A DNA stretch of 64,000 bases, from the NCBI GenBank assembly GCA_964648335.1, contig CAZYLZ010000007.1:1034-65033 (forward strand), in the 5' to 3' direction. Shown here piece after piece: positions 4,379 through 63,072 of the stretch. Source of the stretch: an uncultured Candidatus Saccharibacteria bacterium (GTDB taxonomy: Bacteria; Patescibacteriota; Minisyncoccia; Phycocordibacterales; UBA2100). The notes beneath the pieces were generated by a model, which made no database searches, had not been told where the DNA came from, and saw only the letters and a list, made by a program, of their open reading frames with translations. Both the position numbers and the translations under genes were made by a program. Positions within the stretch are counted from its first letter, which is position 1. Each line of letters starts with the position of its first letter.

Positions 4379-4918
4379 TTAGATCTTGCGGCTGCGCAGA
4401 TACATCGCGTATTCGTACGCCTGCTTGATCATGTCGAACTTCGTATTACTTCCGAGTCCGTCGGGAGCCGTATCGGGGTGATACTGGCGTGCCTTGCATC
4501 GGTAGGCCTCCTTGATTGTCTTCTGCGAATCGGCGGCCGTAATGCCGAGGATGGCGTGACAGTGCGTTTCTGCGTAGTTCTGCGGAGCACGCTTTTTGGG
4601 CTCGGGCCGCAGATGCCGTGTTCGCGCATCGACTTCGTCTTCGAACTGTTTGAAGTCGCGCATAACGGCCTCGGCTTCTTTTGCCTTGGCTGCCTCATCG
4701 GGGCTCACGTAACCCGGGCGAAACCGCGGCGACCCGCGCGTACCGCCAAGGTTCGGTGCTGTCCGTCTGCTATACCTAGGCTGATTTGCCTTAATAAAGC
4801 GCCAACACAGCGAGAAGAAGAGCCATGAGCAGAACATCGGCAAGACCACCCAGATATTGTTCTTGAACACGCTCATGAGGAGCATGAACACAATCATGTT
4901 TACGAGGAAGTATCCCAT
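4379..4918 (-). CDS. DjlA-like membrane protein with a C-terminal J domain (copy 1)
   Basis: N-terminal TM helices. The C-terminus reads ILGITAADSQKTIKEAYRCKARQYHPDTAPDG..FDMIKQAYEYAM, a J domain with the HPD motif. Confidence 0.7.
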   Translation of the reverse strand: MGYFLVNMIVFMLLMSVFKNNIWVVLPMFCSWLFFSLCWRFIKANQPRYSRRTAPNLGGTRGSPRFRPGYVSPDEAAKAKEAEAVMRDFKQFEDEVDARTRHLRPEPKKRAPQNYAETHCHAILGITAADSQKTIKEAYRCKARQYHPDTAPDGLGSNTKFDMIKQAYEYAMYLRSRKI

Positions 4919-5075: not shown

Positions 5076-5591
5076 CTAGGGCTTTGCTTTATGGCGCATT
5101 TCGAGGTATTCGTACGCCCTGATCACCTCGGTAAACTTGGTGGCGTCGCCTTTGCCATCTTTGGCGACGTCGGGGTGGTACTGGCGCACATTTCTGCGAT
5201 ACGCCTTTTGGATCTCCTTCCACGACGCATCGCGCCGGACCTCTAGTGTGGCATACGGATCAAACTGGGGGCGTACCTGATCTGCAGGGCGCCACCCATT
5301 TTGCCCGTAATAATTCGCGTCTCTTCGGTGCCGCTGCAGCATTTCGCGGAACATCTCGATTCGCTCGGCCTCCCGCGCTGCCGCATCTTTGGTCTGCTGC
5401 GTCTTTGTGTCGGGCGTCTTATGAGCCATGCCCACCAAGACGACCACGACCAAGAACGCCGAGAATGAGCTGAACATCATCCAGAGCGCCATAGCCGAGA
5501 GAAAGCCGATGCCCAAGAAAGAAACGAGCATCCAGGCGATCAGAGCATTGCAGAGAAGTGCGATTGCGACAATTTTTTCGAACCAAAACAT
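5076..5591 (-). CDS. DjlA-like membrane protein with a C-terminal J domain (copy 2, paralog)
   Basis: The C-terminus IQKAYRRNVRQYHPDVAKDGKGDATKFTEVIRAYEYL is a J domain with HPD. The N-terminus has TM helices. Same architecture as 4379..4918. Confidence 0.7.
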   Translation of the reverse strand: MFWFEKIVAIALLCNALIAWMLVSFLGIGFLSAMALWMMFSSFSAFLVVVVLVGMAHKTPDTKTQQTKDAAAREAERIEMFREMLQRHRRDANYYGQNGWRPADQVRPQFDPYATLEVRRDASWKEIQKAYRRNVRQYHPDVAKDGKGDATKFTEVIRAYEYLEMRHKAKP

Positions 5592-5968: not shown

Positions 5969-7013
5969 CTACAGCGCGACGATCTTTTCCCACGGAAACT
6001 CATCGCGGCCAAAGTGTCCGTACGCTGCCGTTGCCGCAAAGATAGGACGGCGCAACCCGAGCCGCTCGATTATTGCTTGCGGTCGAAAGTCAAACTTCTT
6101 CTCTACATCGGTTATCCGCTCGCCATGCTCGTTAACCGCCTCGACCATCACGGGCTCTGCGCGCCCAATGGCATACGCCACCGACACGAGCGCACGCTCT
6201 GCGTATCCGTTTGCCACCAAGTTCTTTGCCGCAAAGCGTGCCATGTATGCGGCCGATCTATCTACCTTGGTCGCATCTTTTCCGCTAAAGGCGCCACCAC
6301 CATGCGGAAACAGTCCGCCATAGGTATCGACCATGAGTTTGCGACCAGTAAGTCCGGCATCGGCTGCAAAGCCACCTTCGACAAACCGCCCCGTCGGGTT
6401 TACCAAGAGTTCTATCCGGCTAACATCGCCCAACACCGGCTCGAACAGGTGAGTAACGAGCGCACGATGTATCTCGTCTTGCGAGGTATCTTCTGCATGC
6501 TGGGTACTTACGAGTGCGGTCGCAACGACTCCGTCTTTGATGGTTACCTGCGTCTTGCCGTCGGGGCGCAACCACTCAAGTGTTTTAGCAGTGCGGAGCT
6601 CCTGGAGCTTTTTGGCAAGCGCATGTGCGAGCACCACACCCTGCGGCAGGTACTGCGGCGTCTCGTTGGTGGCATAGCCGTACATGATGCCCTGATCGCC
6701 CGCACCACCCGTATCTACTCCCATCGCAATGTCGCCCGATTGCGCTGCAATATGCTCGAGTATCGTAAGGGCATCGTCGTAGCCGATGCGTCTATATACA
6801 CCTTCCGCTATCGCCTTGTAATCGACCGTTGCGTTGGTTTTTACCTCGCCACCTAATACGAGTATGCCGTGGCTGCCAAAGGATTCGACCGCAACGCGAG
6901 TACGGGTCTTGGGTCAAGCAGGCGTCGAGAATTGCGTCCGAGATTTGGTCGCACACTTTGTCGGGGTGGCCTGCGGTTACCGATTCTGTCGAGTAGGTGC
7001 TAAATGTCTGCAT
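5969..7013 (-). pseudogene. metK: S-adenosylmethionine synthetase (MetK) interrupted by a frameshift near 6895-6905
   Basis: The N-terminal ORF (6792..7013) reads [39 protein letters not shown], then leaves frame. The neighbouring frame continues [42 protein letters not shown]... into the C-terminal ORF (5969..6724) with the motif GGGAFSGKD. Loss or gain of 1-2 nt at ..gacccgtactcgcgttgcggtc.. restores one 348-aa MetK. Confidence 0.8.
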
Positions 7014-7024
7014 ATAAAGGGTCC

Positions 7025-7185
7025 GCGCACGGATAATAAATAAACTCCTTCTCAGGAGCGTGCGCGTTTATCTTCCCCCGAGAGGGGTTTGGATGGGGCA
7101 CCTTCTAGAGACCGTAGTCGCTATGGGTTGCCGGCGGTTCGTAGAGCCAAAACTCTCCCCGCACTCTTGATACATATTTCCGACC
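7025..7185 (-). promoter_or_regulatory. SAM-I (S-box) riboswitch in the metK 5' leader
   Basis: The minus-strand RNA reads AUCAAGAGUGCGGGGAGAGUUUUGGCUCUACGAACCGCCGGCAACC...GGUGCC...CCCCUCUCGGGGGAAGAUAAAC. This matches the S-box consensus (AUCAAGAGAGG.GGAGGGA.UGGCCC.AUGAA.CCCGGCAACC ... GGUGCC ... AGAUGAG). A downstream helix CGCGCACG/CGUGCGCG encloses CUCCU..AGGAG, an SD-sequestering structure, just before the metK AUG. Confidence 0.6.
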
Positions 7186-7195
7186 TAATTCTAGA
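7186..7195. repeat. 10-bp direct repeat TAATTCTAGA (left copy) at the edge of the low-GC island
   Basis: An identical 10-mer recurs at 10567..10576, just past the other end of the low-GC block. Confidence 0.35.
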
Positions 7196-7310
7196 GTACA
7201 AGAAGTTCATGTAACAAACAAGATGCGCGTCAAAATAAAAGGCGATTGCTGATCTGGTGGTGATCTTCCGTGCATTTCCCAAAAACGAAGATGTATGGGA
7301 CTATTCATTC

Positions 7311-7658
7311 ATGAAAAGTCTTGAAGAACTAACGCGGGAAATAGTGGCGTTCAGAGACGCTCGTGATTGGAAGCAATTCCATAACCCGAAGGACCTGGCT
7401 ATTTCGTTGGTCTTGGAAGCAACAGAAGTGCTTGAACATTTCCAGTGGAAGAATACAGAAGAAATGTCTACCCATGTCCAGGCAAATAAAACAGATATTG
7501 GCGAAGAACTTGCAGATACCTTGTATTGGATAATCCTTATGTCGAACGATCTTGGTATAGATATTCTCGAGGCACTTGAGCGTAAGATGATTAAAAATAG
7601 CGTTAAGTATCCGGTAGAAAAAGCAAAAGGGAAGCATACCAAGTACAGCAATTTATAG
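7311..7658 (+). CDS. MazG-like nucleotide pyrophosphohydrolase (all-alpha NTP-PPase)
   Basis: LEELTREIVAFRDARDWKQFHNPKDLAISLVLEATEVLEHFQWK..EELADTLYWIILMS is the MazG/YpjD-type EExxE/D signature. GC is about 42%, versus about 60% for the surrounding genome. Confidence 0.7.
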   Translation: MKSLEELTREIVAFRDARDWKQFHNPKDLAISLVLEATEVLEHFQWKNTEEMSTHVQANKTDIGEELADTLYWIILMSNDLGIDILEALERKMIKNSVKYPVEKAKGKHTKYSNL

Positions 7659-7659
7659 C

Positions 7660-9675
7660 ATGAGCTCCATAAAGACTTTTTCCTTTGATACGAATGGCTT
7701 CGACGAAATAAAAAAGTATCACTTTGGGCGAAACTGGCCCGTTGTCTATGTCCTCGAGAATGCAAACGAGATGTATATCGGCGAGAGTACGAGTGCCTAC
7801 TATCGCTGCAAGCAGCACTTCGAAAATCCTGTTCGCAAGCGACTTAAACATGCACACGTAATAACCGACGATGAGTACAATAAGTCCGCGATTCTCGACA
7901 TTGAGTCGTGGTTAATTCAATACATGGCAGCAGAGGGCACTGTTGTGCTCCAGAATGGCAATAAGGGACTTAGAAATCATAATTATTATCAAAAGGAAAA
8001 GTACGAGGCAAAATTTGAGGTGATTTGGGAAGAGCTGATACGAATGTCGTTGGTTAAAAAAACTTTGCTCGAAATCAGGAACTCTGACTTGTTCAAGTTT
8101 TCGCCTTATAAGGCGCTAAACGATGAACAATTTCTCTTCGTCAAGAAATTGTTTAAAGACATAGCAGCAGGCACGGCATCAACGTACATAGTGCAGGGTT
8201 CTGCCGGAACCGGTAAAACGGTACTCGCGTCATTCTTGATTAAATATCTGCGTGATCAAAAAGAAACAGCGCACCTCAGAGTTGGGCTTGTAATTGGAAT
8301 GTCGTCACTGCGTCGGACCATGCAAAAGGTTTTTGCACAGACGCCTGGCCTTAAGGCAAATATGGTACTTGGACCAAATGATGTGGTCAAAGAGAAATAC
8401 GATATTTTGATAGTCGATGAGGCACATCGCCTAAAGCGTCGTAAAAATCTTGGGGCAGCATTTAAGGCATTTGATGATGTCAATCGAAAACTTGGATTTT
8501 CGAAGGAAAGTAATCAGCTCGATTGGATACTTAAATCCTCTAAGCAACAGATCTTTTTTTATGACCACGCACAACGGGTCATGCCAGCTGACATCGATCC
8601 TGAAGTATTTGCGGAATTGCCTGCACAACGATATGTGCTAGCTACGCAAATGCGAGTACAAGCCGGGGCCGAATATATCGAAGCGATACACAATATTTTA
8701 TCTAATGGTTCCGTAAAAGGAGTCTCAGTACAAGACTATGATTTTCGTATCATCAATGACTTTGAAACACTCCATACTCTAGTTAAAGAAAAAGATGCCG
8801 AATACGGTCTTGGCAGAATTGTGGCTGGTTATGCGTGGCCATGGGTTTCAAATCCGGATCGAAATAAAAATCCGGCAGCGTACGATATCGAGCTCGATAA
8901 CTACAGAATGAAGTGGAATTCTGTTGCGCAGGATTGGGTAAATTCTCCCAACGCAATTAACGAAGTAGGCTGCATTCATACAATTCAAGGCTATGGCTTA
9001 AATTATGTGGGCGTCGTCATTGGCCCCGAGGTAAAGTTCAATCCTGAAACAAAACAGCTCGAAATAGATTCCGATCATTACTACGATAAAAACGGCTACA
9101 CTGGTATAGACGAAAACGAACTGCGCTACTGCATTCTTAACATATATAAAACGCTCCTTACACGCGGAATTTCAGGAACCTATGTATATATCGTCGATGC
9201 GCATCTTAGGAATAGATTCAAAGATGTCTTTGGCGAGAATACTGTCGTTAAGAAGGGCGGTCCGATACTGTCGCCTCTCAAAGTTTCGACCGTAAGAGTA
9301 CCGTTTGTAGGATCAGCTCCGTGTGGCAACCCTCTTTTCGGTGAAGAAAATCGGGAAGGGTACATAGAAGTAGATAAAACTAAAATAAAGCCAGGGTTTA
9401 AGTACTTTGTATTACGTGCCGAAGGAGATTCCATGAACAAAGCTGGGATCTTAGACGGAGACCTGGTGCTTTGTAGGCAACAACTCAAGGCCGATACCGG
9501 TGATAAGGTAGTGGCACTTCTGGGTGATAACGTAACCATCAAAGAGTACGGTCCGCGTGAAAACGGCGTTCGTTTACTTTTGCCACGAAGTACCAACAAA
9601 ACACATCAAGCGATAACGCCGGAAGAAGGTGCCACGGTGCAGGGCATCGTTCAGGAAGTTCTGGTGAAAGAATAA
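7660..9675 (+). CDS. Three-domain fusion: N-terminal GIY-YIG nuclease, DUF2075-type P-loop/DEAH ATPase, C-terminal LexA/UmuD-like S24 autopeptidase
   Basis: GIY-YIG at aa ~25-60: VVYVLENANEMYIGESTSAYYRCKQHFEN. ATPase: Walker A GSAGTGKT (aa 180-187) and DEAH at ILIVDEAHRL (aa 249-258), plus the conserved DUF2075 segments GYAWPW and TLLTRG. C-terminus (aa ~545-645): VPFVGSAPCGNPLFGEEN..LRAEGDSMNKAGILDGDLVL..GDKVVALLGDNVTIKEYG..VRLLLP aligns motif-for-motif with LexA/UmuD. The Cys555-Gly556 scissile bond is at nt 9322..9327, the Ser591 codon at 9430..9432 and the Lys628 codon at 9541..9543. Low GC. Confidence 0.75.
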   Translation: MSSIKTFSFDTNGFDEIKKYHFGRNWPVVYVLENANEMYIGESTSAYYRCKQHFENPVRKRLKHAHVITDDEYNKSAILDIESWLIQYMAAEGTVVLQNGNKGLRNHNYYQKEKYEAKFEVIWEELIRMSLVKKTLLEIRNSDLFKFSPYKALNDEQFLFVKKLFKDIAAGTASTYIVQGSAGTGKTVLASFLIKYLRDQKETAHLRVGLVIGMSSLRRTMQKVFAQTPGLKANMVLGPNDVVKEKYDILIVDEAHRLKRRKNLGAAFKAFDDVNRKLGFSKESNQLDWILKSSKQQIFFYDHAQRVMPADIDPEVFAELPAQRYVLATQMRVQAGAEYIEAIHNILSNGSVKGVSVQDYDFRIINDFETLHTLVKEKDAEYGLGRIVAGYAWPWVSNPDRNKNPAAYDIELDNYRMKWNSVAQDWVNSPNAINEVGCIHTIQGYGLNYVGVVIGPEVKFNPETKQLEIDSDHYYDKNGYTGIDENELRYCILNIYKTLLTRGISGTYVYIVDAHLRNRFKDVFGENTVVKKGGPILSPLKVSTVRVPFVGSAPCGNPLFGEENREGYIEVDKTKIKPGFKYFVLRAEGDSMNKAGILDGDLVLCRQQLKADTGDKVVALLGDNVTIKEYGPRENGVRLLLPRSTNKTHQAITPEEGATVQGIVQEVLVKE

Positions 9676-9811
9676 GAGCCGCTCGAAATATCTGTGTACG
9701 TACTCCTTATCCAACGAAATTAGCTGAATGTGGATTGTGTCGAGGGATAGTAAACAGGCACCCATTGATTGATTAGCGAAATCACTGCAATAAGGGCAAA
9801 GCAAAACGACA

Positions 9812-10483
9812 TCAGGTACCGTTAAACATATAACCCTCGTTAGGGAAAAGTTCCTCGATCATTTTTTCGAGTTTTGCGCCATCGATCATTTCGATGCCGA
9901 CCCGCGTGCCGTCCACGATTGCCTCTTTGCTATACGATCCCGTGGTCACAAATATGCCGCGTTTGGTTCCATGCAAGACAAACGAGCCCAAGAATTCACG
10001 AATTTCGTTTGATCCCACCGATCCTGCATAGCGCTTTACCTGAACCGCAGTGATTTCGCCCTTCTTGGTAAGGAGAATATCGATTCCTTTGTCATTACTG
10101 CGTCGTGTTACTTCTACTTCGTATCCTTGGTGAGCAAAAAGCCTCGAGATATGGTGCTCGAACTTAAACGGGTCCATGTCGCGAAACACCGACACAACGC
10201 GTTGAATACCCAACTCTTGTGCCTCGGTGTGCCAGGCATTCGATTCGTCGATCTTTCCCTTAACAAATCGATACGTGATAACTCCGGCGTATCCAAGACA
10301 AGCCAAAGCTCCAAGGGTAAGAATAGTTTGCCAATAGCCCGCACCGACGTCGATCAGGGATCGTACAATCGGAGCACCAGCTGCGATCAAAAGTACTGCC
10401 CCGACCGCAAGCTCGATGCTGTTGTTCCGTCTTGTCCTGCGCCTGCGTCGTGCCATATATGAGTGTTCTACCGCGATTTCCAT
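9812..10483 (-). CDS. Membrane-anchored restriction endonuclease, Mrr-like catalytic domain
   Basis: N-terminal TM helices. The C-terminus FEHHISRLFAHQGYEVEVTRRSNDKGIDILLTKKGEITAVQVKRYAGSVGSNEIREFLG..GIFVTTGSYSKEA is the Mrr_cat (PD-(D/E)xK) pattern. Confidence 0.65.
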   Translation of the reverse strand: MEIAVEHSYMARRRRRTRRNNSIELAVGAVLLIAAGAPIVRSLIDVGAGYWQTILTLGALACLGYAGVITYRFVKGKIDESNAWHTEAQELGIQRVVSVFRDMDPFKFEHHISRLFAHQGYEVEVTRRSNDKGIDILLTKKGEITAVQVKRYAGSVGSNEIREFLGSFVLHGTKRGIFVTTGSYSKEAIVDGTRVGIEMIDGAKLEKMIEELFPNEGYMFNGT

Positions 10484-10566
10484 GCGGGAGCAACGTGCTC
10501 ATGACCACTAGTGTTCTAATTGTAGCGAATAAGAGGATAAGAAGCAGGAATAGTGACTGTCGCAAT

Positions 10567-10576
10567 TAATTCTAGA
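10567..10576. repeat. 10-bp direct repeat TAATTCTAGA (right copy)
   Basis: See 7186..7195. Confidence 0.35.
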
Positions 10577-10613
10577 TGCTGGCGGCAGGTGCGGGCGGTG
10601 GTACCATGGCGGC

Positions 10614-11126
10614 ATGAAAACCATACCTTTGTATGAGCACTCGATACCGGTATTTATCGGCGGTCTTAGCAATCTAGGCAAGGTGTTGGACATCGCCGAG
10701 ACATACGCCGAAAAGCAGAAGAAAAAGCCCGAGAGCGTGTTGCATGCGCGGCTTGCGCCCGACATGTTCGACCTCATCCAACAGGTCCAGTATGCATACT
10801 TCGTCGCGCTCGATGCCGCCGTTCAGCTTTCGGGACGTCCGATGCCTGCAGGCTTCGATTACGACGAGACAACGTTTGCTGCGTTGAGAAAAAGTCTTAA
10901 GAAAGCCATAATTTTCTTGCGGAGCATTACGCCGGCGCAGTGCGCAAAAGCCCATACCAAGAAGCTGCCTGTGTTTTACAATCCCGAGAAAAAGGTCCCT
11001 GCGCTTACCTTTGTGACCAAGCTTGCGGTACCAAACTTTTTCTTTCATTGCGCCACGGCATACGGCATTGTCCGCGCCTTTGGAGCGCCGCTCAAGAAAT
11101 CGGATTATCTCGGCCCAATCCGTTAA
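10614..11126 (+). CDS. DUF1993-family protein
   Basis: The N-terminus LYEHSIPVFIGGLSNLGKVLDIAE matches the DUF1993 signature (..SVPVFIRGL.NL..IL.KAE). Confidence 0.55.
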   Translation: MKTIPLYEHSIPVFIGGLSNLGKVLDIAETYAEKQKKKPESVLHARLAPDMFDLIQQVQYAYFVALDAAVQLSGRPMPAGFDYDETTFAALRKSLKKAIIFLRSITPAQCAKAHTKKLPVFYNPEKKVPALTFVTKLAVPNFFFHCATAYGIVRAFGAPLKKSDYLGPIR

Positions 11127-11178
11127 GCGCAGGTGGTGTCTGGATGACCAATGCGTGGCCCGACAACGAACAGACTTT

Positions 11179-12072
11179 TTATATACCGCAGACGCGGGAC
11201 AGCTCGGCTAAGTCTGCCGGTGCAGCTAGGGTCGAGGTTCCGGTATTGCTCGCGTACATGATGGCTCCTTTGGTTGGTATGTGGTCCATACCAAGCGAGT
11301 GTCCCATCTCGTGGGCCAAGACTCGTACCAACTGCGGGGTGTCGGTAAATTCGAAAATGGTGATACGACGCTCCGATCCGTACTGGGTATACAATCCCTG
11401 CTCGAACTCGCCGACTTTGGCGATGCGCTGGTTGTAGTCGGCGATCTTGGCGTTGAGGATGGCCGAAAGCGCAACCAGACTGTCGGCAAGTGCGTTTATT
11501 TTGGTTACCTGCGTGTTCTGTATATCTTGCTCGGCCTTGAGGGTGTCGAAGCGGGTAGCAAGTGCTGCCTCGCGCACGACGAGCTGGCGGTATTCGTCTT
11601 GCGAGGCACCACCTTTGGTATTGGTAGCAGCGACATCGGCGTTATAGCGCGCCTCGTCGGCCTTGTAGATGGCAAACTGAGCGCTGTTGGTTGCCTGCGC
11701 TTCTTTGGTAGAGCTTGCAAACGTCGCAAACTGCGTCTGTATAAGTTCGAGTGCGGTCTTAAACAGGTTGAGTCGAGCCAAGGTCGCGGCATTTTGTACC
11801 GACGTGGCTTGTCGCGAGTCGTAGACGAAATCGATGGGGAGTACTGCGCTCGTGGTTGCGTAGACAAAGAGGTTGCGACCAGTTGGCGTTTCCCAAATAG
11901 CTTCGGCGCGCGAAAGTGCATCGGTGATAGCGGGCGCGGCAACGCCAAAGCGCGCGTCGATAGCGCCGATCTTGTAGGTTACGGGCGTCGCACATACACT
12001 GCCTGCGCTTGCAATACCATGCGGCAGGAAACAAAAAGCCACTACGACGATTCCAAACAGGGTTCGCTTCAT
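11179..12072 (-). CDS. Secreted zinc metalloprotease, metzincin/matrixin-like
   Basis: Signal peptide MKRTLFGIVVVAFCFLPHGIASA. The C-terminus VLAHEMGHSLGMDHIPTKGAIMY is HExxHxxGxxH plus a Met-turn. Confidence 0.7.
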   Translation of the reverse strand: MKRTLFGIVVVAFCFLPHGIASAGSVCATPVTYKIGAIDARFGVAAPAITDALSRAEAIWETPTGRNLFVYATTSAVLPIDFVYDSRQATSVQNAATLARLNLFKTALELIQTQFATFASSTKEAQATNSAQFAIYKADEARYNADVAATNTKGGASQDEYRQLVVREAALATRFDTLKAEQDIQNTQVTKINALADSLVALSAILNAKIADYNQRIAKVGEFEQGLYTQYGSERRITIFEFTDTPQLVRVLAHEMGHSLGMDHIPTKGAIMYASNTGTSTLAAPADLAELSRVCGI

Positions 12073-12113
12073 AGCTCAAGTATAAATCCAAGACCTGACT
12101 ACACAAGTCTCGT

Positions 12114-12515
12114 ATGAAGCGTGGTATCGGGGGTTCCGTTACGGTAGAATCTCTCTATATGCTCGTCGATGTCAGGACACCGAGTGAATTTAAGGCGCGG
12201 CACGCCGAGGGTGCCACCAACATACCGCTCGAAGACCTCGAGGCAGGAAAGATTGGAGTGTTGGTAGTGCTCGAAAAAAATACACTCGTACAGATCTACT
12301 GCCGCCGCGGCGGACGCGCGAGCCGCGCACAAGAATTGCTGGCGGAGCGCGGGTTTACCAATGTTCAGAACCTGGGCGGACTTCACGACGTCCTTCGGTT
12401 GCAGAGCGGGCCCGACGAAGAATGGCCGAGTGCGGGAGATGCTGCATACGTCGTGCTCGTCATGGCGGTCGGTACTATCCTCATCGCGCTTGTCGCGTGG
12501 TATCTGCTTGCGTAA
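12114..12515 (+). CDS. Rhodanese-domain sulfurtransferase with a C-terminal TM helix
   Basis: LVDVRTPSEFKARHAEGATNIPL..IYCRRGGRASRAQELLAERGFTNVQNLGG: rhodanese fold with the active-site Cys in CRRGGRA. Confidence 0.7.
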   Translation: MKRGIGGSVTVESLYMLVDVRTPSEFKARHAEGATNIPLEDLEAGKIGVLVVLEKNTLVQIYCRRGGRASRAQELLAERGFTNVQNLGGLHDVLRLQSGPDEEWPSAGDAAYVVLVMAVGTILIALVAWYLLA

Positions 12516-12543
12516 CGTTAGCTACCGAATGCCATTCATAAAA

Positions 12544-12567
12544 AATCTCCCCGACCTGGTCGGGGAG
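12544..12567 (-). terminator. Hairpin tctccccgacc-tg-gtcggggaga with an A/T tract
   Basis: 11-bp stem. The minus-strand tail is UUUUUU. It lies 3' of the gene ending at 12576. Confidence 0.55.
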
Positions 12568-12575
12568 ACGCATGC

Positions 12576-12881
12576 TTACCTCGTCGGATTTTCGCGACGC
12601 CAATCTTCGATGCGCTGCAAACGCACCCGCTTTGACTGGCTATCCCAGCGTGCTGTCGCCGGATGGCTGACGAGCCGGTAAGGAACCTGGTTGCGCGCCC
12701 AGAGCATATTGATCGCGTTCAAGCTTGTTGGGCCGCCGCGGCACGATGCCATGCCGCACTCTTCGATGGCGCGAAGTACCGGTTCGTCCGTCTGCTTATA
12801 GCGGATAGCGAAGATTTTTTGCCACTCGCTCTCGGGCAGCGCTGCCACAAAGGTGCGGCTGCCAATAGTTTCGAGTTTCAT
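12576..12881 (-). CDS. Hypothetical protein (101 aa)
   Basis: RBS AAGGAG 6 nt upstream of the ATG (MKLETIG). The antisense ORF 12663..13001 is rejected. Confidence 0.5.
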   Translation of the reverse strand: MKLETIGSRTFVAALPESEWQKIFAIRYKQTDEPVLRAIEECGMASCRGGPTSLNAINMLWARNQVPYRLVSHPATARWDSQSKRVRLQRIEDWRRENPTR

Positions 12882-13222
12882 CACGTACTCCTTATGCAAG
12901 CCAGTGGGGAACTATACAAGATTATTTTGCCAGGTAAAGAGTGGATAACCAAAAAAATGCGGGCCATACGGGCCCGCAAGGGTTGTCAGTGGGGAATGTA
13001 GAACTTCCAAACGAGCAAGAATGCCGCGGCTGCTGCGAGCGTTAGAGCGAGCATGCAGACGGTGCAGCAGCTTGTCGGGGCGGAGTCTTTGGCGTTTGTA
13101 TCGCGTGGTGTCATCGCACTCTCCTTGTGTGTACCGCCTACGACCATACCACCCAACGATGCCTGCGCAAGGTGGTTAGGGTCGCGGCAGCCCCCTGTAT
13201 ACTTGGGGCATTACACTCATCA

Positions 13223-14305
13223 ATGTATATGCAAAACAGTCTCAACGCTCTCCTCGCCTGGTTTAATCTTCCGCCCATGCGTCTTTCCACCGCGCTGTGG
13301 TGGGCACTTGGTATCGTCGTGGTCGTATTTGGAGTGATTCCGTCTTTGTTTGGTGCGGGACGCGGCGTGTATCTACCGCAAGGCACCTATGGATTTACGA
13401 CGTCGGGGTTGCAGCCGATGATGCCTTCGGCTGCGTACGACTCGAGTAGTGTCGGCGGAGCGCCTGCAATGGGTATCGCTTCCTACGAGAAGGGAGAATC
13501 GCTTTCGGCACGCAACGTCGCTTCGATCATGCCGCCGCACGTAAACGGATCGACCGGCTCGTCCGCCGAAGCCTTCGAGGTGACAAGCTACAGCGCCTCG
13601 TACGAGACGGCGCATCTGGACGACACCTGCGCGTCTATCTCGACGCTTATGGCCGAGACCTTTGTAGTGTTCGAGAGTGCAAATGCCTACGAGCGCGGGT
13701 GCAGCTTTTCGTTCAAGGTAGAGAAGGCACATGTCGACGAGGTATTGGCCGAGCTCAAGGCACTCGATCCGAAGTCGCTCTCGCAGAACACTTACACTAT
13801 CGAGCAGCAGGTGAGCGACTACACCAGCCGTGAAGACAGCCTCAAGCGCAAGCTCGCATCTATCGACGAAACCATGAAGTCCGCCATGACCGCTTACGAC
13901 GAGATAACGCGGCTCGCGACCCAGGGCCGCGACGCCGGCAGTCTCGCCTCGATCATCTCGAGTAAGATTGAGCTCATACGAGAGCTTACCCGCGAGCGCA
14001 TCAGCGTTACCGACGAGCTCGAGCAGCTCGGGCGCGCGAAGGCGCGTCAGCTCGACGGCGTCTCGTACACGACCTTTAGCGTCCAGGTGACCGAGCGCCT
14101 TTATATAGACGGCACAAGCATCGCCGAATCGTGGCGCAACGCGATGCGATCGTTCGTCGATACCATGAACATCCTCGTGCAAGACCTCACAATCAATCTC
14201 GTCGCGGTGACGCTTAAGTTGGTCCTCTATATCGCGTACTTCTTCATCTTGCTAATCGGAGCCAAGTATGTGGTCAAGTTCGCCCAGGCAGTGTGGAAGT
14301 GGTAG
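13223..14305 (+). CDS. Membrane protein with an N-terminal TM, central coiled coil and C-terminal TM (DUF4349-like architecture)
   Basis: TM segment WWALGIVVVVFGVIPSLFGAG. A long coiled-coil region (SDYTSREDSLKRKLASIDETMKSAMTAYDEI...). Terminal TM LVAVTLKLVLYIAYFFILLIGA. Confidence 0.5.
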   Translation: MYMQNSLNALLAWFNLPPMRLSTALWWALGIVVVVFGVIPSLFGAGRGVYLPQGTYGFTTSGLQPMMPSAAYDSSSVGGAPAMGIASYEKGESLSARNVASIMPPHVNGSTGSSAEAFEVTSYSASYETAHLDDTCASISTLMAETFVVFESANAYERGCSFSFKVEKAHVDEVLAELKALDPKSLSQNTYTIEQQVSDYTSREDSLKRKLASIDETMKSAMTAYDEITRLATQGRDAGSLASIISSKIELIRELTRERISVTDELEQLGRAKARQLDGVSYTTFSVQVTERLYIDGTSIAESWRNAMRSFVDTMNILVQDLTINLVAVTLKLVLYIAYFFILLIGAKYVVKFAQAVWKW

Positions 14306-14384
14306 TTGGCTATCCGACTTGCGTACTTTTGGGGGCTTGCTAGTGTGAAGCTAGTACTGGTCTCACGGTACAGGAGGTGTGGCG

Positions 14385-14672
14385 ATGCAGACCCCAGGAA
14401 GGCAAGCAAAGGCGAAGCGCAAGAACAATGTTCGCAGACGCATGAGCGACCGCGATCTTGCTCGTCTCGGCGGCGGCAAGGTGGCCTACATCAAGGCACT
14501 CAGCGCCGAGACGGCCAAGAAACTCTACCCGGCAGTCAAAGGGCTGCCGCAGGGAATCGAACTCTTTGCACTCCATGCCGCCGACGGTACGCCCCTGGCG
14601 CTCACCGACAGCAAGCATGCTGCAATCGGGCATGCCATGAGCGATAAGCTCGAGGTGTACCAGGTGCACTAG
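14385..14672 (+). CDS. Small basic hypothetical protein (95 aa)
   Basis: AGGAGG 7 nt upstream of the ATG. Sequence LARLGGGKVAYIKALSAETAKKLYP. A terminator follows. Confidence 0.5.
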   Translation: MQTPGRQAKAKRKNNVRRRMSDRDLARLGGGKVAYIKALSAETAKKLYPAVKGLPQGIELFALHAADGTPLALTDSKHAAIGHAMSDKLEVYQVH

Positions 14673-14684
14673 CACGAAAAGCAA

Positions 14685-14712
14685 ACCCCTCCGTGGCACA
14701 GAGGGGTTTTTC
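14685..14712. terminator. Hairpin acccctc-cgtggcaca-gaggggt plus TTTTTC between convergent genes
   Basis: Seen directly. T-tract on the plus strand. Confidence 0.6.
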
Positions 14713-14724
14713 TATTGCATACGA

Positions 14725-15504
14725 TCACCGGCCGACGTGTGCCGGGGGCTTGCGCGAATCGAGCCCGAGTGAGCGCAAGAAAATTGAGAGCTCCTCGCCT
14801 TTAATGGCGCGAAAGCCGCCCTCGGGAAGCTTGTTAAGCGTGATGTTAAGTACGCGTACGCGCTTGAGGTCTACCACGGTGTTGTACAACGCCGAGACCA
14901 TACGTCGGATCTGACGGTTCTTACCTTCGGAGAGGGTTATGCGGAACGTTGCACCGCCCAAGAGATCTACCTTGCATGGCTTGGTAACGTAGTCGCCGAT
15001 GTTGACACCGTTCTGCATATTTTCTTTGAACGATGAGCGGAGTTTTTCTTGCGCCTTCACAATATATTCTTTTGTGTGCTCATTGTCGGGATTCAAGAGG
15101 CGATCAGTGACGCGACCGTCGTTGGTGAGGATGATGAGCCCGTGCGAGTCTTTGTCGAGGCGGCCGATAGGAAACATGCCGCGCATCTCGGGGATATCCT
15201 TGAGCACGTCCGAGATAGAGCGTTCGCCGCGCTGAGGCGAATGGGTGATAACCCCGGCGGGTTTGTTGTATGCCCAGTAAAAAAGTTTTGTCTTCTGTCC
15301 GCGGACACGCACCTCGACTTCGTCGGTCTCTTCGACCTTGTCGCCGAGGTTCGCAACCTTGCCGTTGATACGAACGACACCCTGCTTGACTAAGGCGTCA
15401 CCACCTAAGCGCGTCGAAAAACCTCGGCTGGCGAGGTATTTGTTGATACGCATCGGATAGCCGGTCTTTTCCGCTGGGGGTGTTTGTACGGCGCGCTTCT
15501 TCAT
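14725..15504 (-). CDS. RsuA/RluB-family rRNA pseudouridine synthase
   Basis: An S4 domain ([33 protein letters not shown]) followed by a catalytic domain with [17 protein letters not shown]. This is the RsuA/RluB family. Confidence 0.8.
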
Positions 15505-15604
15505 AGGTAGAGAGTATACACTAGAATGGCAAAAAGCCCAGTCGTCAAGTATCTGGCCAGGAGCGACGAGCGACAGCACCGGTCGAGCCGTGTACAATCG
15601 TTCC

Positions 15605-16147
15605 ATGAACCGTTACACCTGGCTTGTCGTCATCATCGGTCTTTTGGCTGCGGCCGCCATGGCGGGGTCGGGACTTATGGCACGCAAAGGTATGGCTGCT
15701 CCGGTGGCGAAGGGCGCGCCGAGCGTGGAAACAGCGTTGCGCTCCAAGCTCTCACCCCTCCAATACCACGTGACCCAAGAAGACGGCACCGAGTCACCGT
15801 ACGCAAACGAGTATTGGGACAATCACGAAGACGGCATTTATGTCGACGTCGTATCGGGCGAGCCGTTGTTCTCGTCGAAAGACAAATACGATTCGCACAC
15901 GGGATGGCCGTCGTTTACCAAACCGCTTGTGCCCGAGAACATTACCGAGAAAAAAGATTCGCTCCTCGGGTACGAACGTACCGAAGTGCGGTCCAAGCAG
16001 GCCAACTCGCACCTGGGACATGTATTTACCGACGGCCCGGCACCCTTGGGTTTGCGCTACTGCATGAACTCGGCAGCGATGCGCTTTATCGCAAAAAAAG
16101 ATCTCGTCACCGAAGGTTACGGCGACTATGCACGGCTCTTTCAATAA
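15605..16147 (+). CDS. msrB: Peptide methionine-(R)-sulfoxide reductase MsrB with an N-terminal membrane anchor or signal
   Basis: [58 protein letters not shown] is the SelR/MsrB signature. The N-terminus [18 protein letters not shown] is hydrophobic. Confidence 0.85.
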
Positions 16148-45384: not shown

Positions 45385-46647
45385 ATGGAACCTCTTTCAG
45401 AAATTCTTAAGTCACGCGGACTCGCGTACCAGCACTCGAGCGCCACCTTAGAAGAGCTCACCGACGGAGCAAAGCGGACGGTCTATCTGGGTATCGACCC
45501 GTCCGCCGATTCTCTCCACATCGGCAATCTACAGGCAATGCTCGTATTGCGCCGCTTCCTCGAGGCCGGGCACAAGGTGATCCTTCTCATCGGTGGTGGC
45601 ACCGGCATGATCGGCGACCCCTCGGGTAAAAGCGAGGAGCGCAACCTTTTGGATACCGAGACTCTAGCTCGTAATACCGCAGCGCTCGGCGAGCAGGCGA
45701 AGAAGCTCTTTGGTGGTCTCGACTTCAAGCTCGTCAATAACGCCGACTGGCTCGGGCAGCTCGACATGATCTCGTTTCTGCGCGACGTCGGTAAACATTT
45801 TTCCGTAAATGCGATGCTCGCTCGTGACTCGGTAAAAAACCGCCTCGACAACGAGGAGCAAGGGATCTCGTACACCGAGTTCTCGTACATGCTCTTGCAG
45901 TCGTACGACTTTTATCACTTGTTCACGGAATTCGGATGCGACGTCCAAATCGGATCCTCGGACCAGTGGGGAAACATCGTGAGCGGTGTCGACTTCATTA
46001 GGCGCAAGACCGGCAAGACTGCATATGCCTTCACCTCGCCGTTGCTTATAAACAAAGCAACAGGCAAGAAGTTTGGCAAGAGCGAAGGAGGTGCGGTATG
46101 GCTCGATGCGGCAAAGACTTCGCCATATGCGTTCTACCAGTTCTGGCTCAATACCGACGACGCCGACGTCAACGAATTTATGCAAAAAATGACCATGATG
46201 CCGCTCGCTAAGATCGCCGAGGCGATGGAGGAGCACACAAAGAACCCCGGCAAGCGCATAGCCCAGAAGCTCTTGGCACGCGAGGTGACTGCTCTCGTGC
46301 ATGGCGTCGACCAGACAGACCTCGCCGAGTCGGTTTCTGCGATCATATTCGGCGAGACAGAGCTTTCCGACATCTCGGATGCAGAGAAACAGATGCTCGT
46401 ATCGGAAGCACCGCACACTGATGTTGCCGCGGATGAGACCTTGGTGGATGTTCTTATAAAAGCAGGGCTCGCAACCTCGAAGCGCGAGGCGCGCGAGTTC
46501 ATAGAGAACAAAGCAGTATCGGTATCGGGCGTCGTCATCACCGACGTCGCATACACGTTTGGCGAACGAGATTTCATAAACGGCTTGGCACTCTTAAAAC
46601 GCGGGAAACGAAACGTATCAGTACTCGTATATAAAGAATCAATCTAG
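45385..46647 (+). CDS. tyrS: Tyrosine--tRNA ligase
   Basis: GIDPSADSLHIGNL (HIGH), KFGKSEG (KMSKS), and a C-terminal S4 domain. Confidence 0.9.
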   Translation: MEPLSEILKSRGLAYQHSSATLEELTDGAKRTVYLGIDPSADSLHIGNLQAMLVLRRFLEAGHKVILLIGGGTGMIGDPSGKSEERNLLDTETLARNTAALGEQAKKLFGGLDFKLVNNADWLGQLDMISFLRDVGKHFSVNAMLARDSVKNRLDNEEQGISYTEFSYMLLQSYDFYHLFTEFGCDVQIGSSDQWGNIVSGVDFIRRKTGKTAYAFTSPLLINKATGKKFGKSEGGAVWLDAAKTSPYAFYQFWLNTDDADVNEFMQKMTMMPLAKIAEAMEEHTKNPGKRIAQKLLAREVTALVHGVDQTDLAESVSAIIFGETELSDISDAEKQMLVSEAPHTDVAADETLVDVLIKAGLATSKREAREFIENKAVSVSGVVITDVAYTFGERDFINGLALLKRGKRNVSVLVYKESI

Positions 46648-46734
46648 CAGACTTTGTAACGGTGTAATATAATTGCTTTATTAAATATATCGTGTTATAT
46701 TATAACAAGCTGAACCAATCGTCAGGAGAGCCAG

Positions 46735-47265
46735 ATGGGCAACCAACCTATTAGTAATCTCACGTCCAAGATTGCGTACGCGGTGCTTGAAGCTAACCGC
46801 AAAGCGCTCGAAGTGCAGCGTGAGCTGGCTGAAGCGAATCTTCGAGCCGTAACGGTGCTTACAGGTTCGGTCGGCGACACAAGGGAGAATTTCGAACAAC
46901 ACAGCAGGTATGAAATCCAACTTCGAGCCATGCTGGACCATGTCGCACCCGCACTGGACAAGGAAATTGAGACCGCTTTTGCAGCCTGGATTAAAGACGG
47001 AAAGCCAGACTTTCCGCGGGGGTACGTGATCACGTACCACGACGGACAGGGCAAAGAATCGAAAATTCACGGTCCACTGAGGGCAATCATCCAGCCACTT
47101 GCTGAGGATCCTCACTTTTACTTCCGATCTAATGCCCCATTTTTTGCGATTCTCAATCGATGGCTCTCTGATAGATATCACGGTACCATCGTGGTCGAAG
47201 ACCATGACGATAATCGTCGTGCTCTTTACGGCTTGGTAATCCGCTGGATCTGGCTTCCAGCATAA
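46735..47265 (+). CDS. Hypothetical protein (176 aa) in a lower-GC segment
   Basis: RBS CAGGAGAG upstream. AT-rich leader. Confidence 0.45.
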   Translation: MGNQPISNLTSKIAYAVLEANRKALEVQRELAEANLRAVTVLTGSVGDTRENFEQHSRYEIQLRAMLDHVAPALDKEIETAFAAWIKDGKPDFPRGYVITYHDGQGKESKIHGPLRAIIQPLAEDPHFYFRSNAPFFAILNRWLSDRYHGTIVVEDHDDNRRALYGLVIRWIWLPA

Positions 47266-47273
47266 TTTCTCTT

Positions 47274-47310
47274 CCACCACCTCACGTGCGGGGTGGTGGT
47301 TTCTTTTTAC
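47274..47310 (+). terminator. Hairpin ccaccacc-tcacgtgc-ggggtggtgg plus TTTCTTTTT
   Basis: Seen directly. Confidence 0.6.
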
Positions 47311-47365
47311 ATGTACGAACCTGCGGTATCATGTTTGGACTATCCGATAATATTTACGTGTTCGT

Positions 47366-47920
47366 ATGGATTCATCATCAACTAACGAAAAGATCGGTGT
47401 CGCCGCTGGTGTGCTCATCGTTGTAGCACTCGTAGGAGGCTCGTGGTACGCAGGCTTCTTCCCGTCGCAGTCAGTAAGCACCGCCACCGATGGTGTGGTA
47501 GCCGAGCAGGGCGCAGCCATGCAGGCGACCGTGCCAACAGATACTTCTACTAATCAACCTGCTGCTACAGCGCCAACACCAACTATGCAAAATGTCACCG
47601 AGCTTCAAGTTTCTGATGTAAAGGTAGGATCAGGAGCAGAAGTAAAGCAGGGAAGTAAAGCGTCGGTCCTCTATAAGGGCATGCTTACCGACGGAACGGT
47701 CTTCGACGCATCATCGCTCCATGGCAACACACCATTCGAGTTCGTCGTTGGTGCCGGTATGGTGATCAAGGGCTGGGACCAGGGTCTTGTGGGTATGAAG
47801 GTAGGCGGCCAGCGCCGACTCGTCATACCATCGACATTAGGATATGGGGAGCAGGGCATGGGACCGATCCCAGGAGGCGCGACACTCGTCTTCGAGGTCG
47901 AGCTCTTGGATGTTAAGTAA
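47366..47920 (+). CDS. FKBP-type peptidyl-prolyl cis-trans isomerase with an N-terminal membrane anchor
   Basis: VKVGSGAEVKQGSKASVLYKGMLTDGTVFDASS...FEFVVGAGMVIKGWDQGLVGMKVGGQRRLVIPSTLGYGEQG. Confidence 0.85.
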   Translation: MDSSSTNEKIGVAAGVLIVVALVGGSWYAGFFPSQSVSTATDGVVAEQGAAMQATVPTDTSTNQPAATAPTPTMQNVTELQVSDVKVGSGAEVKQGSKASVLYKGMLTDGTVFDASSLHGNTPFEFVVGAGMVIKGWDQGLVGMKVGGQRRLVIPSTLGYGEQGMGPIPGGATLVFEVELLDVK

Positions 47921-62990: not shown

Positions 62991-62999
62991 TGACGTTTG

Positions 63000-63072
63000 T
63001 GGACCCTGGGAGATTCGAACTCCCGACATCCACATTGCAAATGTGGCGCTCTACCAGCTGAGCTAAGGGCCC
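63000..63072 (-). tRNA. tRNA-Cys (anticodon GCA)
   Basis: The minus-strand read GGGCCCUUAGCUCAGCUGGUAGAGCGCCACAUUUGCAAUGUGGAUGUCGGGAGUUCGAAUCUCCCAGGGUCCA folds into a canonical cloverleaf: 7-bp acceptor stem, D loop AGCUCAGCUGGUAGAGC, anticodon loop UUGCAAU, T loop GGUUCGAAUCC-like. Confidence 0.85.

Follow-up and report, generated by a model that had tools for sequence, protein, structure and literature searches.

The closest described relatives of the genes reported here are two anti-phage systems that combine a nuclease with a DUF2075 helicase, namely Nhi from Staphylococcus epidermidis (SERP2475; Bari et al., bioRxiv 10.1101/776245) and Nhi-like (Millman et al., 2022, bioRxiv 10.1101/2022.05.11.491447). 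A fusion of DUF2075 with a GIY-YIG nuclease is mentioned only in passing in the literature, and very few defence systems have been identified in Patescibacteria (PMC12366544). Here we describe a locus in a 64,000 nucleotide (nt) stretch of DNA from an uncultured Candidatus Saccharibacteria bacterium (contig CAZYLZ010000007.1; the whole stretch is called the window, or the 64 kb, below), in which a block of low G+C (GC) content lies between metK, with its S-adenosylmethionine (SAM) riboswitch, on the left and a DUF1993 gene on the right. The block carries a MazG-like gene, a gene for a fusion of nuclease, helicase, and S24 domains, and an Mrr-type nuclease gene, as had been listed in an earlier note on this DNA. 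We hold with moderate confidence that the block is a horizontally acquired defence islet composed of an Nhi-like two-gene module and a separate, membrane-anchored Mrr nuclease, that the module would be gated by its S24 domain, and that the 10 bp repeat found at both ends of the block is probably not an insertion scar.

The module resembles Nhi and Nhi-like in having an N-terminal nuclease and a DUF2075 (PF09848) helicase core of the superfamily 1B (SF1B) type in one polypeptide, but its sequence indicates that it is not a member of either family. Its nuclease is of the GIY-YIG type, whereas that of Nhi is PD-(D/E)XK and that of Nhi-like is NERD. Furthermore, Nhi and Nhi-like are single-gene systems, whereas the family in the window has an almost obligatory MazG-like partner (78 of 80 loci), and the subfamily to which the window protein belongs carries an S24 domain at its C-terminus. 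Nhi and Nhi-like protect against phage, whereas protection by the window family is a prediction. The PADLOC model of Nhi matches aa 145-333 of the fusion protein with positions 176-330 of its 470 (E = 2.1e-12), and thus not at full length, and the homologues behave alike. No PADLOC or NCBIfam model covers the full fusion protein, none matches the MazG partner, and neither the pair nor a helicase-nuclease fused to S24 was described in any text that our full-text literature search brought up. As a genomic island, a low-GC islet with a 10 bp repeat is ordinary, and the cargo is of more interest: the pair is abundant in Patescibacteria, is also found on Bacillus megaplasmids, and is absent from PADLOC.

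A nuclease-helicase fused to a LexA-type domain

The central gene of the block encodes a protein with three recognizable parts (Table 1). Pfam assigned the helicase core to SLFN-g3_helicase (PF09848; aa 175-513, E = 1.3e-64) and the C-terminal part to Peptidase_S24 (E = 4.2e-19). The GIY-YIG match is weak in the window protein (17.3 bits), while homologues score 27.7 and 25.0 bits against a cut-off of 22.6. Residue invariance was judged from an alignment of 25 fusion-protein sequences (A1). In the nuclease domain Y30, Y39, G41, R49, H53, E82, N99, and N101 are invariant, with a spacing that matches the catalytic set of I-TevI (Y6, Y17, R27, H31, E75, and N90), and in the helicase both Walker A (G180, G183, T184, G185, and K186) and Walker B (D253 and E254, with H256) are preserved in every sequence. 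The invariant residues of the S24 domain are P548, G551, P554, C555, G556, P558, G589-D590-S591-M592, and T626-I627-K628. By these residues, and by those of the MazG-like partner given below, the catalytic residues are intact in all four enzymatic units.

The S24 domain is nearest to those of LexA, UmuD, and lambda CI, with which it shares an (Ala/Cys)-Gly bond, a Ser-Lys dyad, and surrounding motifs that align residue by residue. When it is aligned with Escherichia coli LexA, C555-G556 corresponds to A84-G85, GDSM to GMSM (Ser119), and TIK to TVK (Lys156), while the cleavage loop VGSAPC/GNP falls opposite VGRVAA/GEP of LexA. The predicted Cys-Gly cleavage site matches that of UmuD. A profile of the domain matches LexA C-terminal domains at E of ~1e-15, and the NCBIfam lexA model matches the C-terminal part of the protein (E = 7.7e-22) with 77.9 bits, which is below its equivalog cut-off of 110.95. 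Unlike LexA, the fusion protein has no N-terminal DNA-binding domain, and a Pfam search with LexA_DNA_bind gave no match to it. Its cargo is also different from that of other S24 proteins, being a nuclease and helicase of ~545 aa instead of a repressor domain or a 24-aa tail. We also considered that the S24 part might be a signal-peptidase-like domain and ruled this out, given that the LexA alignment includes the cleavage loop.

The predicted structure of the fusion protein has a mean predicted local distance difference test score (pLDDT) of 74; the nuclease and helicase are modelled well, the S24 domain poorly. Foldseek matched the fold to RecD2 (5.7e-11) and human SLFN11 (4.7e-10), and also to SLFN14, Upf1, RecD, and Dda. 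The likeness to the group 3 Schlafen proteins (SLFN11, SLFN5, and SLFN14) therefore consists of PF09848 together with the predicted fold match to SLFN11 and SLFN14; identity is only ~11%, and the N-terminal nuclease is of another kind. That the window protein might show a Schlafen-like response to single-stranded DNA (ssDNA) or replication stress is our conjecture, made by analogy.

Full-length homologues are numerous. Apart from the self-match, the matches listed, at least 120 and all full-length, are 55-61% identical to the window protein, and all of them carry S24; the closest homologue among the matches listed is 61% identical, and the named S24-bearing members among them are all from Patescibacteria. 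The long forms all retain S24, even at 40% identity, and forms of ~520 aa are without it. The family comprises at least 589 loci in Joint Genome Institute (JGI) metagenomes, and 408 clusters at 50% identity with E <= 1e-30.

The nuclease-helicase gene is paired with a MazG-like gene

The gene immediately upstream encodes an all-alpha NTP pyrophosphohydrolase whose stop codon lies 1 nt before the ATG of the fusion gene. Since its homologues are ~115 aa long, the true start is probably the ATG at 7311, which would yield a protein of 115 aa. Its nearest solved structures are pyrophosphatase 4qgp (E = 1e-19) and dCTP pyrophosphatase 1 (DCTPP1; E = 6e-17), and the predicted metal ligands E36, E39, E42, E66, and D69 (numbered from the M at 7311) are kept in at least 95% of 65 homologues. 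The protein thus has in common with DCTPP1/RS21-C6 its closest sequence match and the conserved acidic metal ligands, but differs in being paired with a nuclease-helicase.

We examined 84 homologous loci, mostly from Patescibacteria. Enough upstream DNA is included in 80 of them, and in 78 of these a MazG-like gene immediately precedes the helicase gene. As far as gene order and spacing can tell, the two genes are one conserved, translationally coupled two-gene unit. The pair is also present, without S24, on both of the Bacillus cereus-group megaplasmids that we inspected, where it is annotated as 'nucleotide pyrophosphohydrolase' and 'DUF2075 domain-containing protein', and where the MazG-like and helicase proteins are 48-52% and 31-34% identical, respectively, to those of the window. 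There it adjoins HNH endonucleases, a zeta toxin, and a DEAD-box helicase. A further copy lies on an unannotated, putatively viral scaffold from human faeces (L109; MT836409.1, 6628-8710), deposited as 'UNVERIFIED: Bacteriophage sp.', and its helicase is 41% identical and lacks S24. A family-alignment search of IMG/VR viral contigs found no relatives of the fusion protein.

The genomic context of the module differs in every locus inspected. The 109 genes found downstream of it are of many kinds, and conflict genes are well represented among them, with five C5 cytosine methylases, HpaII, two Mrr_cat and two MTES_1575 proteins, two DUF559 proteins, two zeta toxins, two Fic proteins, two reverse transcriptases, an EVE protein, and another DUF2075 protein; this signal is guilt by association rather than a formal enrichment test. 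One Patescibacteria locus has a gene for a 673-aa reverse transcriptase (RVT_1) directly after the module (L021:8073-10094 and L022:6938-8959), and another (L020) has a Y1 transposase after it and a DUF4258/DUF2283 toxin-antitoxin-like pair before it.

The earlier note had spoken of three defence-type genes. Two of these, the MazG-like gene and the fusion gene, prove to be one conserved unit; the Mrr-type gene, treated below, is an unrelated neighbour, and none of the three belongs to a validated defence system.

Table 1. Positions of the features discussed in the text (window numbering, unless a contig or accession is given).
Feature	Position	Strand	Remarks
metK	5969..7013	-	native left neighbour; start 7013; frameshifted by a 2-bp deletion between 6894/6895
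Terminator-like hairpin after the riboswitch	7059-7044	-	promoter/terminator scan
SAM-I riboswitch aptamer	7065..7176	-	Rfam RF00162, 48.2 bits vs gathering score 44.4; native left flank
Left copy of TAATTCTAGA	7186..7195	+	reads TCTAGAATTA on the minus strand; holds the predicted metK -10 hexamer
Predicted sigma-70-type promoter of the metK leader	7188..7217	-	TTGTTA-18-TAGAAT; consensus scan only
MazG-like all-alpha NTP pyrophosphohydrolase, DCTPP1/RS21-C6 type	7257..7658	+	Pfam PF12643, 64.3 bits vs cut-off 27
Fusion protein, 671 aa: GIY-YIG + DUF2075/Schlafen-group-3 SF1B helicase + LexA/UmuD-type S24	7660..9675	+	
GIY-YIG nuclease domain	7729..7974	+	~aa 24-105
SF1B helicase/P-loop NTPase core (DUF2075)	8116..9198	+	~aa 153-513
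S24 (LexA/UmuD-like) predicted self-cleaving domain	9292..9663	+	
Predicted scissile bond Cys555-Gly556	9322-9327	+	from LexA alignment; coordinates checked by translation
Predicted catalytic Ser591 and Lys628	9430-9432 and 9541-9543	+	coordinates checked by translation
Mrr-family (type IV-like) PD-(D/E)XK nuclease, predicted membrane-anchored	9812..10483	-	Mrr_cat PF04471, E = 6.2e-30, aa 101-209
Right copy of TAATTCTAGA	10567..10576	+	between the divergent Mrr and DUF1993 genes, 38 nt upstream of the DUF1993 ATG
DUF1993 gene, right neighbour	10614..11126	+	Pfam E = 6.4e-42; third-position GC 0.63, host-like
Pair on Bacillus mycoides megaplasmid (L107)	NZ_CP036030.1 113779-115774		
Pair on Bacillus thuringiensis megaplasmid (L108)	NC_020394.1 104617-106776		
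Divergent stretches in short JGI contigs	L003:1-148; L010:1-50; L009:1-561; L007:971-1018		

The block is foreign to its surroundings

Composition was profiled across the window as GC content in windows of 400 nt and 1 kb and as tetranucleotide distance. In the 400-nt profile, GC is 0.405-0.48 from ~7000 to ~10200, compared with 0.53-0.60 in the flanks. The 1-kb values have a mean of 0.553 (standard deviation 0.032) and fall below 0.49 only at 7001-10500, which is the one extended stretch of this kind, and at a single position starting at 46501. The latter stretch (46501-47500; 0.486 per 1 kb) is the second lowest in the window and overlaps an open reading frame (ORF) at 46681-47280 whose GC content at third codon positions (GC3) is 0.58. 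In tetranucleotide usage, 7001-10000 stands further from the remainder of the 64 kb than any other segment (z = 4.9), and no other segment is a strong outlier. At the level of genes, the MazG-like and fusion genes have GC3 values of 0.45 and 0.44, and the Mrr-like gene one of 0.53, while most neighbouring genes lie at 0.63-0.74. The low-GC island described in the earlier note is therefore real by all three measures, and its flanks are richer in GC as claimed, although at 55-58% rather than ~60%.

An objective compositional segmentation placed the AT-rich block at 7162-10336. The three ORFs fill 7257-10483, with non-coding gaps of only 136 nt and 130 nt. The repeat had been placed just outside both ends of the block; by this segmentation, the right edge falls inside the Mrr gene, ~230 nt short of the right copy.

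Support for the idea that the block was acquired horizontally comes from its atypical GC3 and tetranucleotide usage, from the distance to the nearest homologue of the fusion protein (61%), and from the recurrence of an AT-rich module in differing contexts: in 49 of the 56 loci with enough flanking DNA the module has a lower GC content than the DNA on either side, the difference having a median of 5.5 and a maximum of 16.6 GC points, and in several high-GC hosts the low-GC segment is the pair alone (~2.5 kb). Horizontal acquisition, as the earlier note had proposed, is thus supported by sequence composition and distribution. Low GC might instead be native to these genes, through a constraint on amino-acid composition or expression. 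The module is AT-rich in nearly every host, and all strain-level contigs carry the island at the same place, both of which would suit such a constraint, but the deficit is largest at synonymous third positions (0.44 vs 0.63-0.74), the tetranucleotide usage is aberrant, relatives with syntenic metK and msrB are without the genes at this position, and the genomic context is different in every locus. We regard a native origin as very improbable.

The 10 bp repeat

The earlier note interpreted the repeat as a target-site duplication or an att-core remnant. The identical 10-mer TAATTCTAGA is indeed present at both ends of the block and occurs exactly twice in the 64 kb, both times on the plus strand, so that within the window it is not a frequent sequence. 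The expected number of copies is 0.05, which, being an expectation for this particular 10-mer, is a post-hoc statistic. Significance was instead measured as the occurrence of any exact direct match of at least 10 nt between boundary zones in dinucleotide-preserving shuffles; such a match arose in 2.3% of shuffles when the zones were the two intergenic regions, in 1.8% when they were 200 nt long, and in 11% when they reached 200 nt to either side (+/-200 nt). The 4-kb region around the block contains 30 direct and 36 inverted repeat families of at least 10 nt, several of which are exact at 11-12 nt, and around the two copies of TAATTCTAGA there is no similarity beyond 10 nt.

A separate observation concerns the core of the repeat. 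TCTAGA is found three times in the 64 kb (7104, 7190, and 10571), always as TTCTAGA and always in non-coding DNA around the island; the third TTCTAGAG, at 7103, lies within the metK riboswitch leader. By base composition, we estimate that ~12 occurrences of TCTAGA would be expected in the window. The hexamer is strongly avoided in this genome, which speaks for non-randomness of the repeat.

The left copy overlaps a predicted promoter. The -10 hexamer (TAGAAT) of the predicted metK-leader promoter is located inside the 10-mer, and the promoter ends 11 nt upstream of the 5' end of the riboswitch at 7176. Two relatives with a syntenic metK (L024 and L025) have extended -10-like elements, TGCTACACT and TGCTATAGT, in the corresponding position ahead of their riboswitch. 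A target-site duplication at the 10-mer would put the predicted -35 inside the supposed insert, and the empty site that can be reconstructed by joining 7185 to 10577, CCGACC-TAATTCTAGA-TGCTGGCGG, contains no -35-like sequence when read by eye. At the right copy, a consensus scan found neither a complete promoter nor a matching -35, and a better -10 candidate for Mrr (TACAAT), also read from the sequence, lies closer to the Mrr start than does the repeat.

These observations also bear on a proposal that both 10-mers are functional cis elements, serving as a -10 or an operator through which a common factor acts on the metK leader and the Mrr/DUF1993 promoters. Both copies do lie in promoter-bearing intergenic DNA upstream of minus-strand genes, their reverse complement contains TAGAAT, and the TCTAGA core is palindromic and recurs as the third TTCTAGAG in the metK leader. 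However, only the left copy has a matching -35, Mrr has its better -10 nearer to its start, no regulator is encoded nearby, and the motif is absent from the metK promoters of relatives. On balance, we find a shared regulatory role improbable.

We likewise consider it improbable that the block is a mobile element in its own right that entered the DNA between DUF1993 and the metK leader, with a 10 bp target duplication or by att-core recombination. Such an insertion would account well for a 10-mer that occurs only twice in the 64 kb, once at each end of the three-gene block and in the same orientation, for a chance of an intergenic match of ~2%, and for the near absence of TCTAGA elsewhere in the window. 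However, Pfam found no integrase, other recombinase, or transposase domain in the three ORFs, and a repeat search of the 4-kb region found no terminal inverted repeats pairing both ends. There is no tRNA or tmRNA near the island, the sole tRNA of the window being tRNA-Ala at 62999-63072. A prophage or insertion sequence remnant was likewise ruled out, as no such genes are found in the block. The 10-mer itself is of marginal significance. At 16 homologous module loci, no consistent flanking repeats were found, and the longest boundary repeats had shuffle probabilities of 0.03-1.0. Moreover, the left copy is the predicted metK -10, and the composition of Mrr differs from that of the MazG-helicase pair, which suggests more than one acquisition.

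The repeat is therefore weak evidence of insertion, because such a match arises in 2-11% of shuffles, the left copy lies in a predicted promoter, mobility genes are absent, homologous loci lack consistent flanking repeats, and no empty site was found. Most probably, the left copy is metK promoter DNA, and its agreement with the right copy is a coincidence between promoter regions that are both AT-rich, not the trace of an insertion; the target-site duplication or att core of the earlier note is not supported.

Same-species contigs and the empty site

The same locus, 99.3-100% identical, was recovered from three Logan assemblies and six JGI metagenomes, and the eight contigs of this species that extend across an edge of the island all have it in the same position, which is a further point against an inserted element. 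Exact-protein look-ups with DUF1993, the fusion protein, and the metK variant returned only same-species contigs, all with the island. One of these contigs represents a somewhat diverged strain (L110; 0.7% over 2.9 kb, 21 differing positions).

Four short JGI contigs leave the window sequence, namely L009 at 6343, L010 at 7226/7227, L003 at ~10577-10591, and L007 at 11541. Two of the breakpoints are near the edges of the island, that of L003 lying beside the right repeat copy, which could be taken to favour insertion; the other two are inside metK (6343) and inside a peptidase gene (11541). The departing sequence of L003 is an RnfC/SLBB-like coding fragment and does not have the predicted empty site. 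Because two of the four breaks fall within native genes, the junctions are probably assembly chimeras rather than strain rearrangements, and we set them aside as alternative contexts of the locus.

A search of the GTDB species representatives with DUF1993 found no close relative, only matches in Proteobacteria at 34-39% identity. A comparison is offered by the relatives L024 and L025, in which metK, the peptidyl-prolyl isomerase gene downstream, and msrB upstream are syntenic with the window. In these relatives, a canonical lexA and msrB lie just upstream of metK, and the metK-msrB interval holds one or two variable genes besides lexA (L024:6405-8000 and L025:5855-8000), compared with 8.5 kb here (7014-15590; msrB of the window is at 15590-16147). 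The island therefore sits in a variable region. No canonical lexA was found in the 64 kb, whose sole S24 domain is the one fused to the helicase. An empty site of the kind that the earlier note suggested looking for was not found among these sequences: the relatives are without the genes at this position, but differ throughout the metK-msrB interval.

Defence or DNA repair

In LexA, UmuD, and CI, self-cleavage of the S24 domain is stimulated by RecA-ssDNA filaments. We infer, by analogy with these proteins and with Nhi, that the pair may be an Nhi-like nucleic-acid-degrading defence module whose S24 domain would gate it by self-cleavage of the SOS type. The nuclease-helicase would be made as a pro-enzyme that is held in check, or dimerised, by the S24 domain. 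Phage replication or DNA damage would produce RecA-ssDNA filaments, which would stimulate self-cleavage at Cys555-Gly556. Cleavage would part a nuclease-helicase of ~555 aa from a dimerising C-terminal domain of ~116 aa, and in so doing switch the enzyme on or off. Once freed, the nuclease-helicase could degrade replicating or foreign DNA in the manner of Nhi, and the MazG partner could alter the (d)NTP pool, either by lowering dCTP or by hydrolysing modified dCTP. Changing the dNTP pool is an established anti-phage strategy, employed by nucleotide-depletion defences such as dCTP deaminase and dGTPase. An SOS-type signal does exist in the lineage, since the L024 and L025 relatives encode a canonical LexA.

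Within this framework, we tentatively put forward the possibility that the pair is an undescribed and widespread immune system, of which the Patescibacteria form has S24 as a built-in switch, such that RecA-ssDNA would trigger Cys-Gly cleavage and unleash the nuclease-helicase. The combination of a nuclease-helicase of the Schlafen/Nhi type with an intact LexA-type domain is of interest in that the RecA/ssDNA signal could thereby control an effector of immunity or suicide, and the DCTPP1-like partner suggests a link of nucleotide-pool control with nucleic-acid degradation. If true, the module would be a bacterial counterpart of the replication-stress response of SLFN11, and the first known instance in which what the SOS self-cleavage module gates is an effector enzyme, in place of a repressor or a subunit of a polymerase.

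Several points weigh against a defence islet with an S24-gated mechanism. No gene of the islet is a member of an experimentally validated defence system, and the PADLOC matches are partial, the Nhi model aligning with the P-loop region (2e-12) and PDC-S14 with the N-terminus. A response to DNA damage could equally be built from such parts, namely a nuclease of UvrC-like fold, an enzyme that sanitises dNTPs, and a LexA-like domain. The RecA dependence of S24 cleavage is assumed from LexA, UmuD, and CI; no recA was found in the window, in a search that is uninformative; and the S24 part of the structure model has a pLDDT of 40-60. Housekeeping genes, among them those for TruB, glutamate dehydrogenase, CTP synthase, and sigma-70, are often neighbours of the module. 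Neither an empty site nor a donor turned up among same-species contigs, GTDB representatives, or distant relatives, and while the distant relatives are without the islet genes at this position, their entire metK-msrB interval differs. Lastly, the 10-mer is rare, TCTAGA occurs just three times in the 64 kb and always near the island, and a chance value of 2% does not exclude a real link between both copies.

The main rival is that the MazG-helicase-S24 pair serves Patescibacteria in repairing DNA or responding to its damage, in which case MazG would sanitise the dNTP pool, the GIY-YIG helicase would process damaged or stalled forks, and S24 would tie the activity of the helicase to SOS. The parts fit this equally well: the S24 domain is nearest to LexA/UmuD, with site and dyad intact, and the MazG-like protein is nearest to DCTPP1, an enzyme of nucleotide house-cleaning. 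Patescibacteria carry the family very commonly, as the counts given above illustrate, and several loci lie among housekeeping genes. In addition, the DUF2075 relative SLFN11 acts at stressed replication forks (PMC6765204). It is the distribution, with the hallmarks of accessory conflict genes, that argues against repair. The pair is clearly foreign in this genome and is AT-richer than its surroundings across hosts and in unrelated contexts, its neighbours are rich in restriction-modification, toxin, and reverse-transcriptase genes, and the same pair is found on Bacillus megaplasmids beside HNH nucleases and a zeta toxin. We therefore judge a repair function unlikely and prefer a defence module.

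The Mrr-type gene and the flanking genes

The Mrr_cat domain of the third gene is well supported (104.1 bits against a cut-off of 21), and PADLOC matched the protein to PDC-S02 (3e-18) and mREase_IV (3e-12), which together make up its likeness to Mrr and the type IV restriction endonucleases. It differs from Mrr in its N-terminal part: Mrr has a winged-helix DNA-binding domain, whereas the window protein is arginine-rich and has two hydrophobic stretches, predicted as helices, in aa 23-71, and Pfam detected no domain N-terminal of aa 101. A word-indexed search found 13 homologues, the closest at 75%. We considered Mrr as a third component of the module and rejected this, as an Mrr-like gene is near the module in only 3 of the 84 loci. 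In view of this low number, the intermediate GC3 (0.53), and the few homologues, the Mrr-type gene is an independent neighbour, and it was possibly acquired separately.

On the metK side, the nearest matches to metK beyond its own species are 72-77% identical, with 77% the closest, and belong to Paceibacterota, Kaiserbacteria, and Parcubacteria, from which it follows that the host is a Patescibacterium. Compared with JGI contig L009, metK has lost 2 bp from a CG repeat ~40 codons after its start, which splits the reading frame. Independent assemblies (L001, L008, and L110) and the 251-aa NCBI gene call show this frameshift as well, so that metK may truly be a pseudogene, or may differ between strains, in spite of an intact riboswitch and promoter. 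Further to the left, two tandem paralogous membrane proteins with a C-terminal DnaJ domain are encoded on the minus strand at 4379-4918 and 5076-5591, and the L110 strain is without the segment 4379-5037, and hence without one of these two DnaJ-domain genes (the second).

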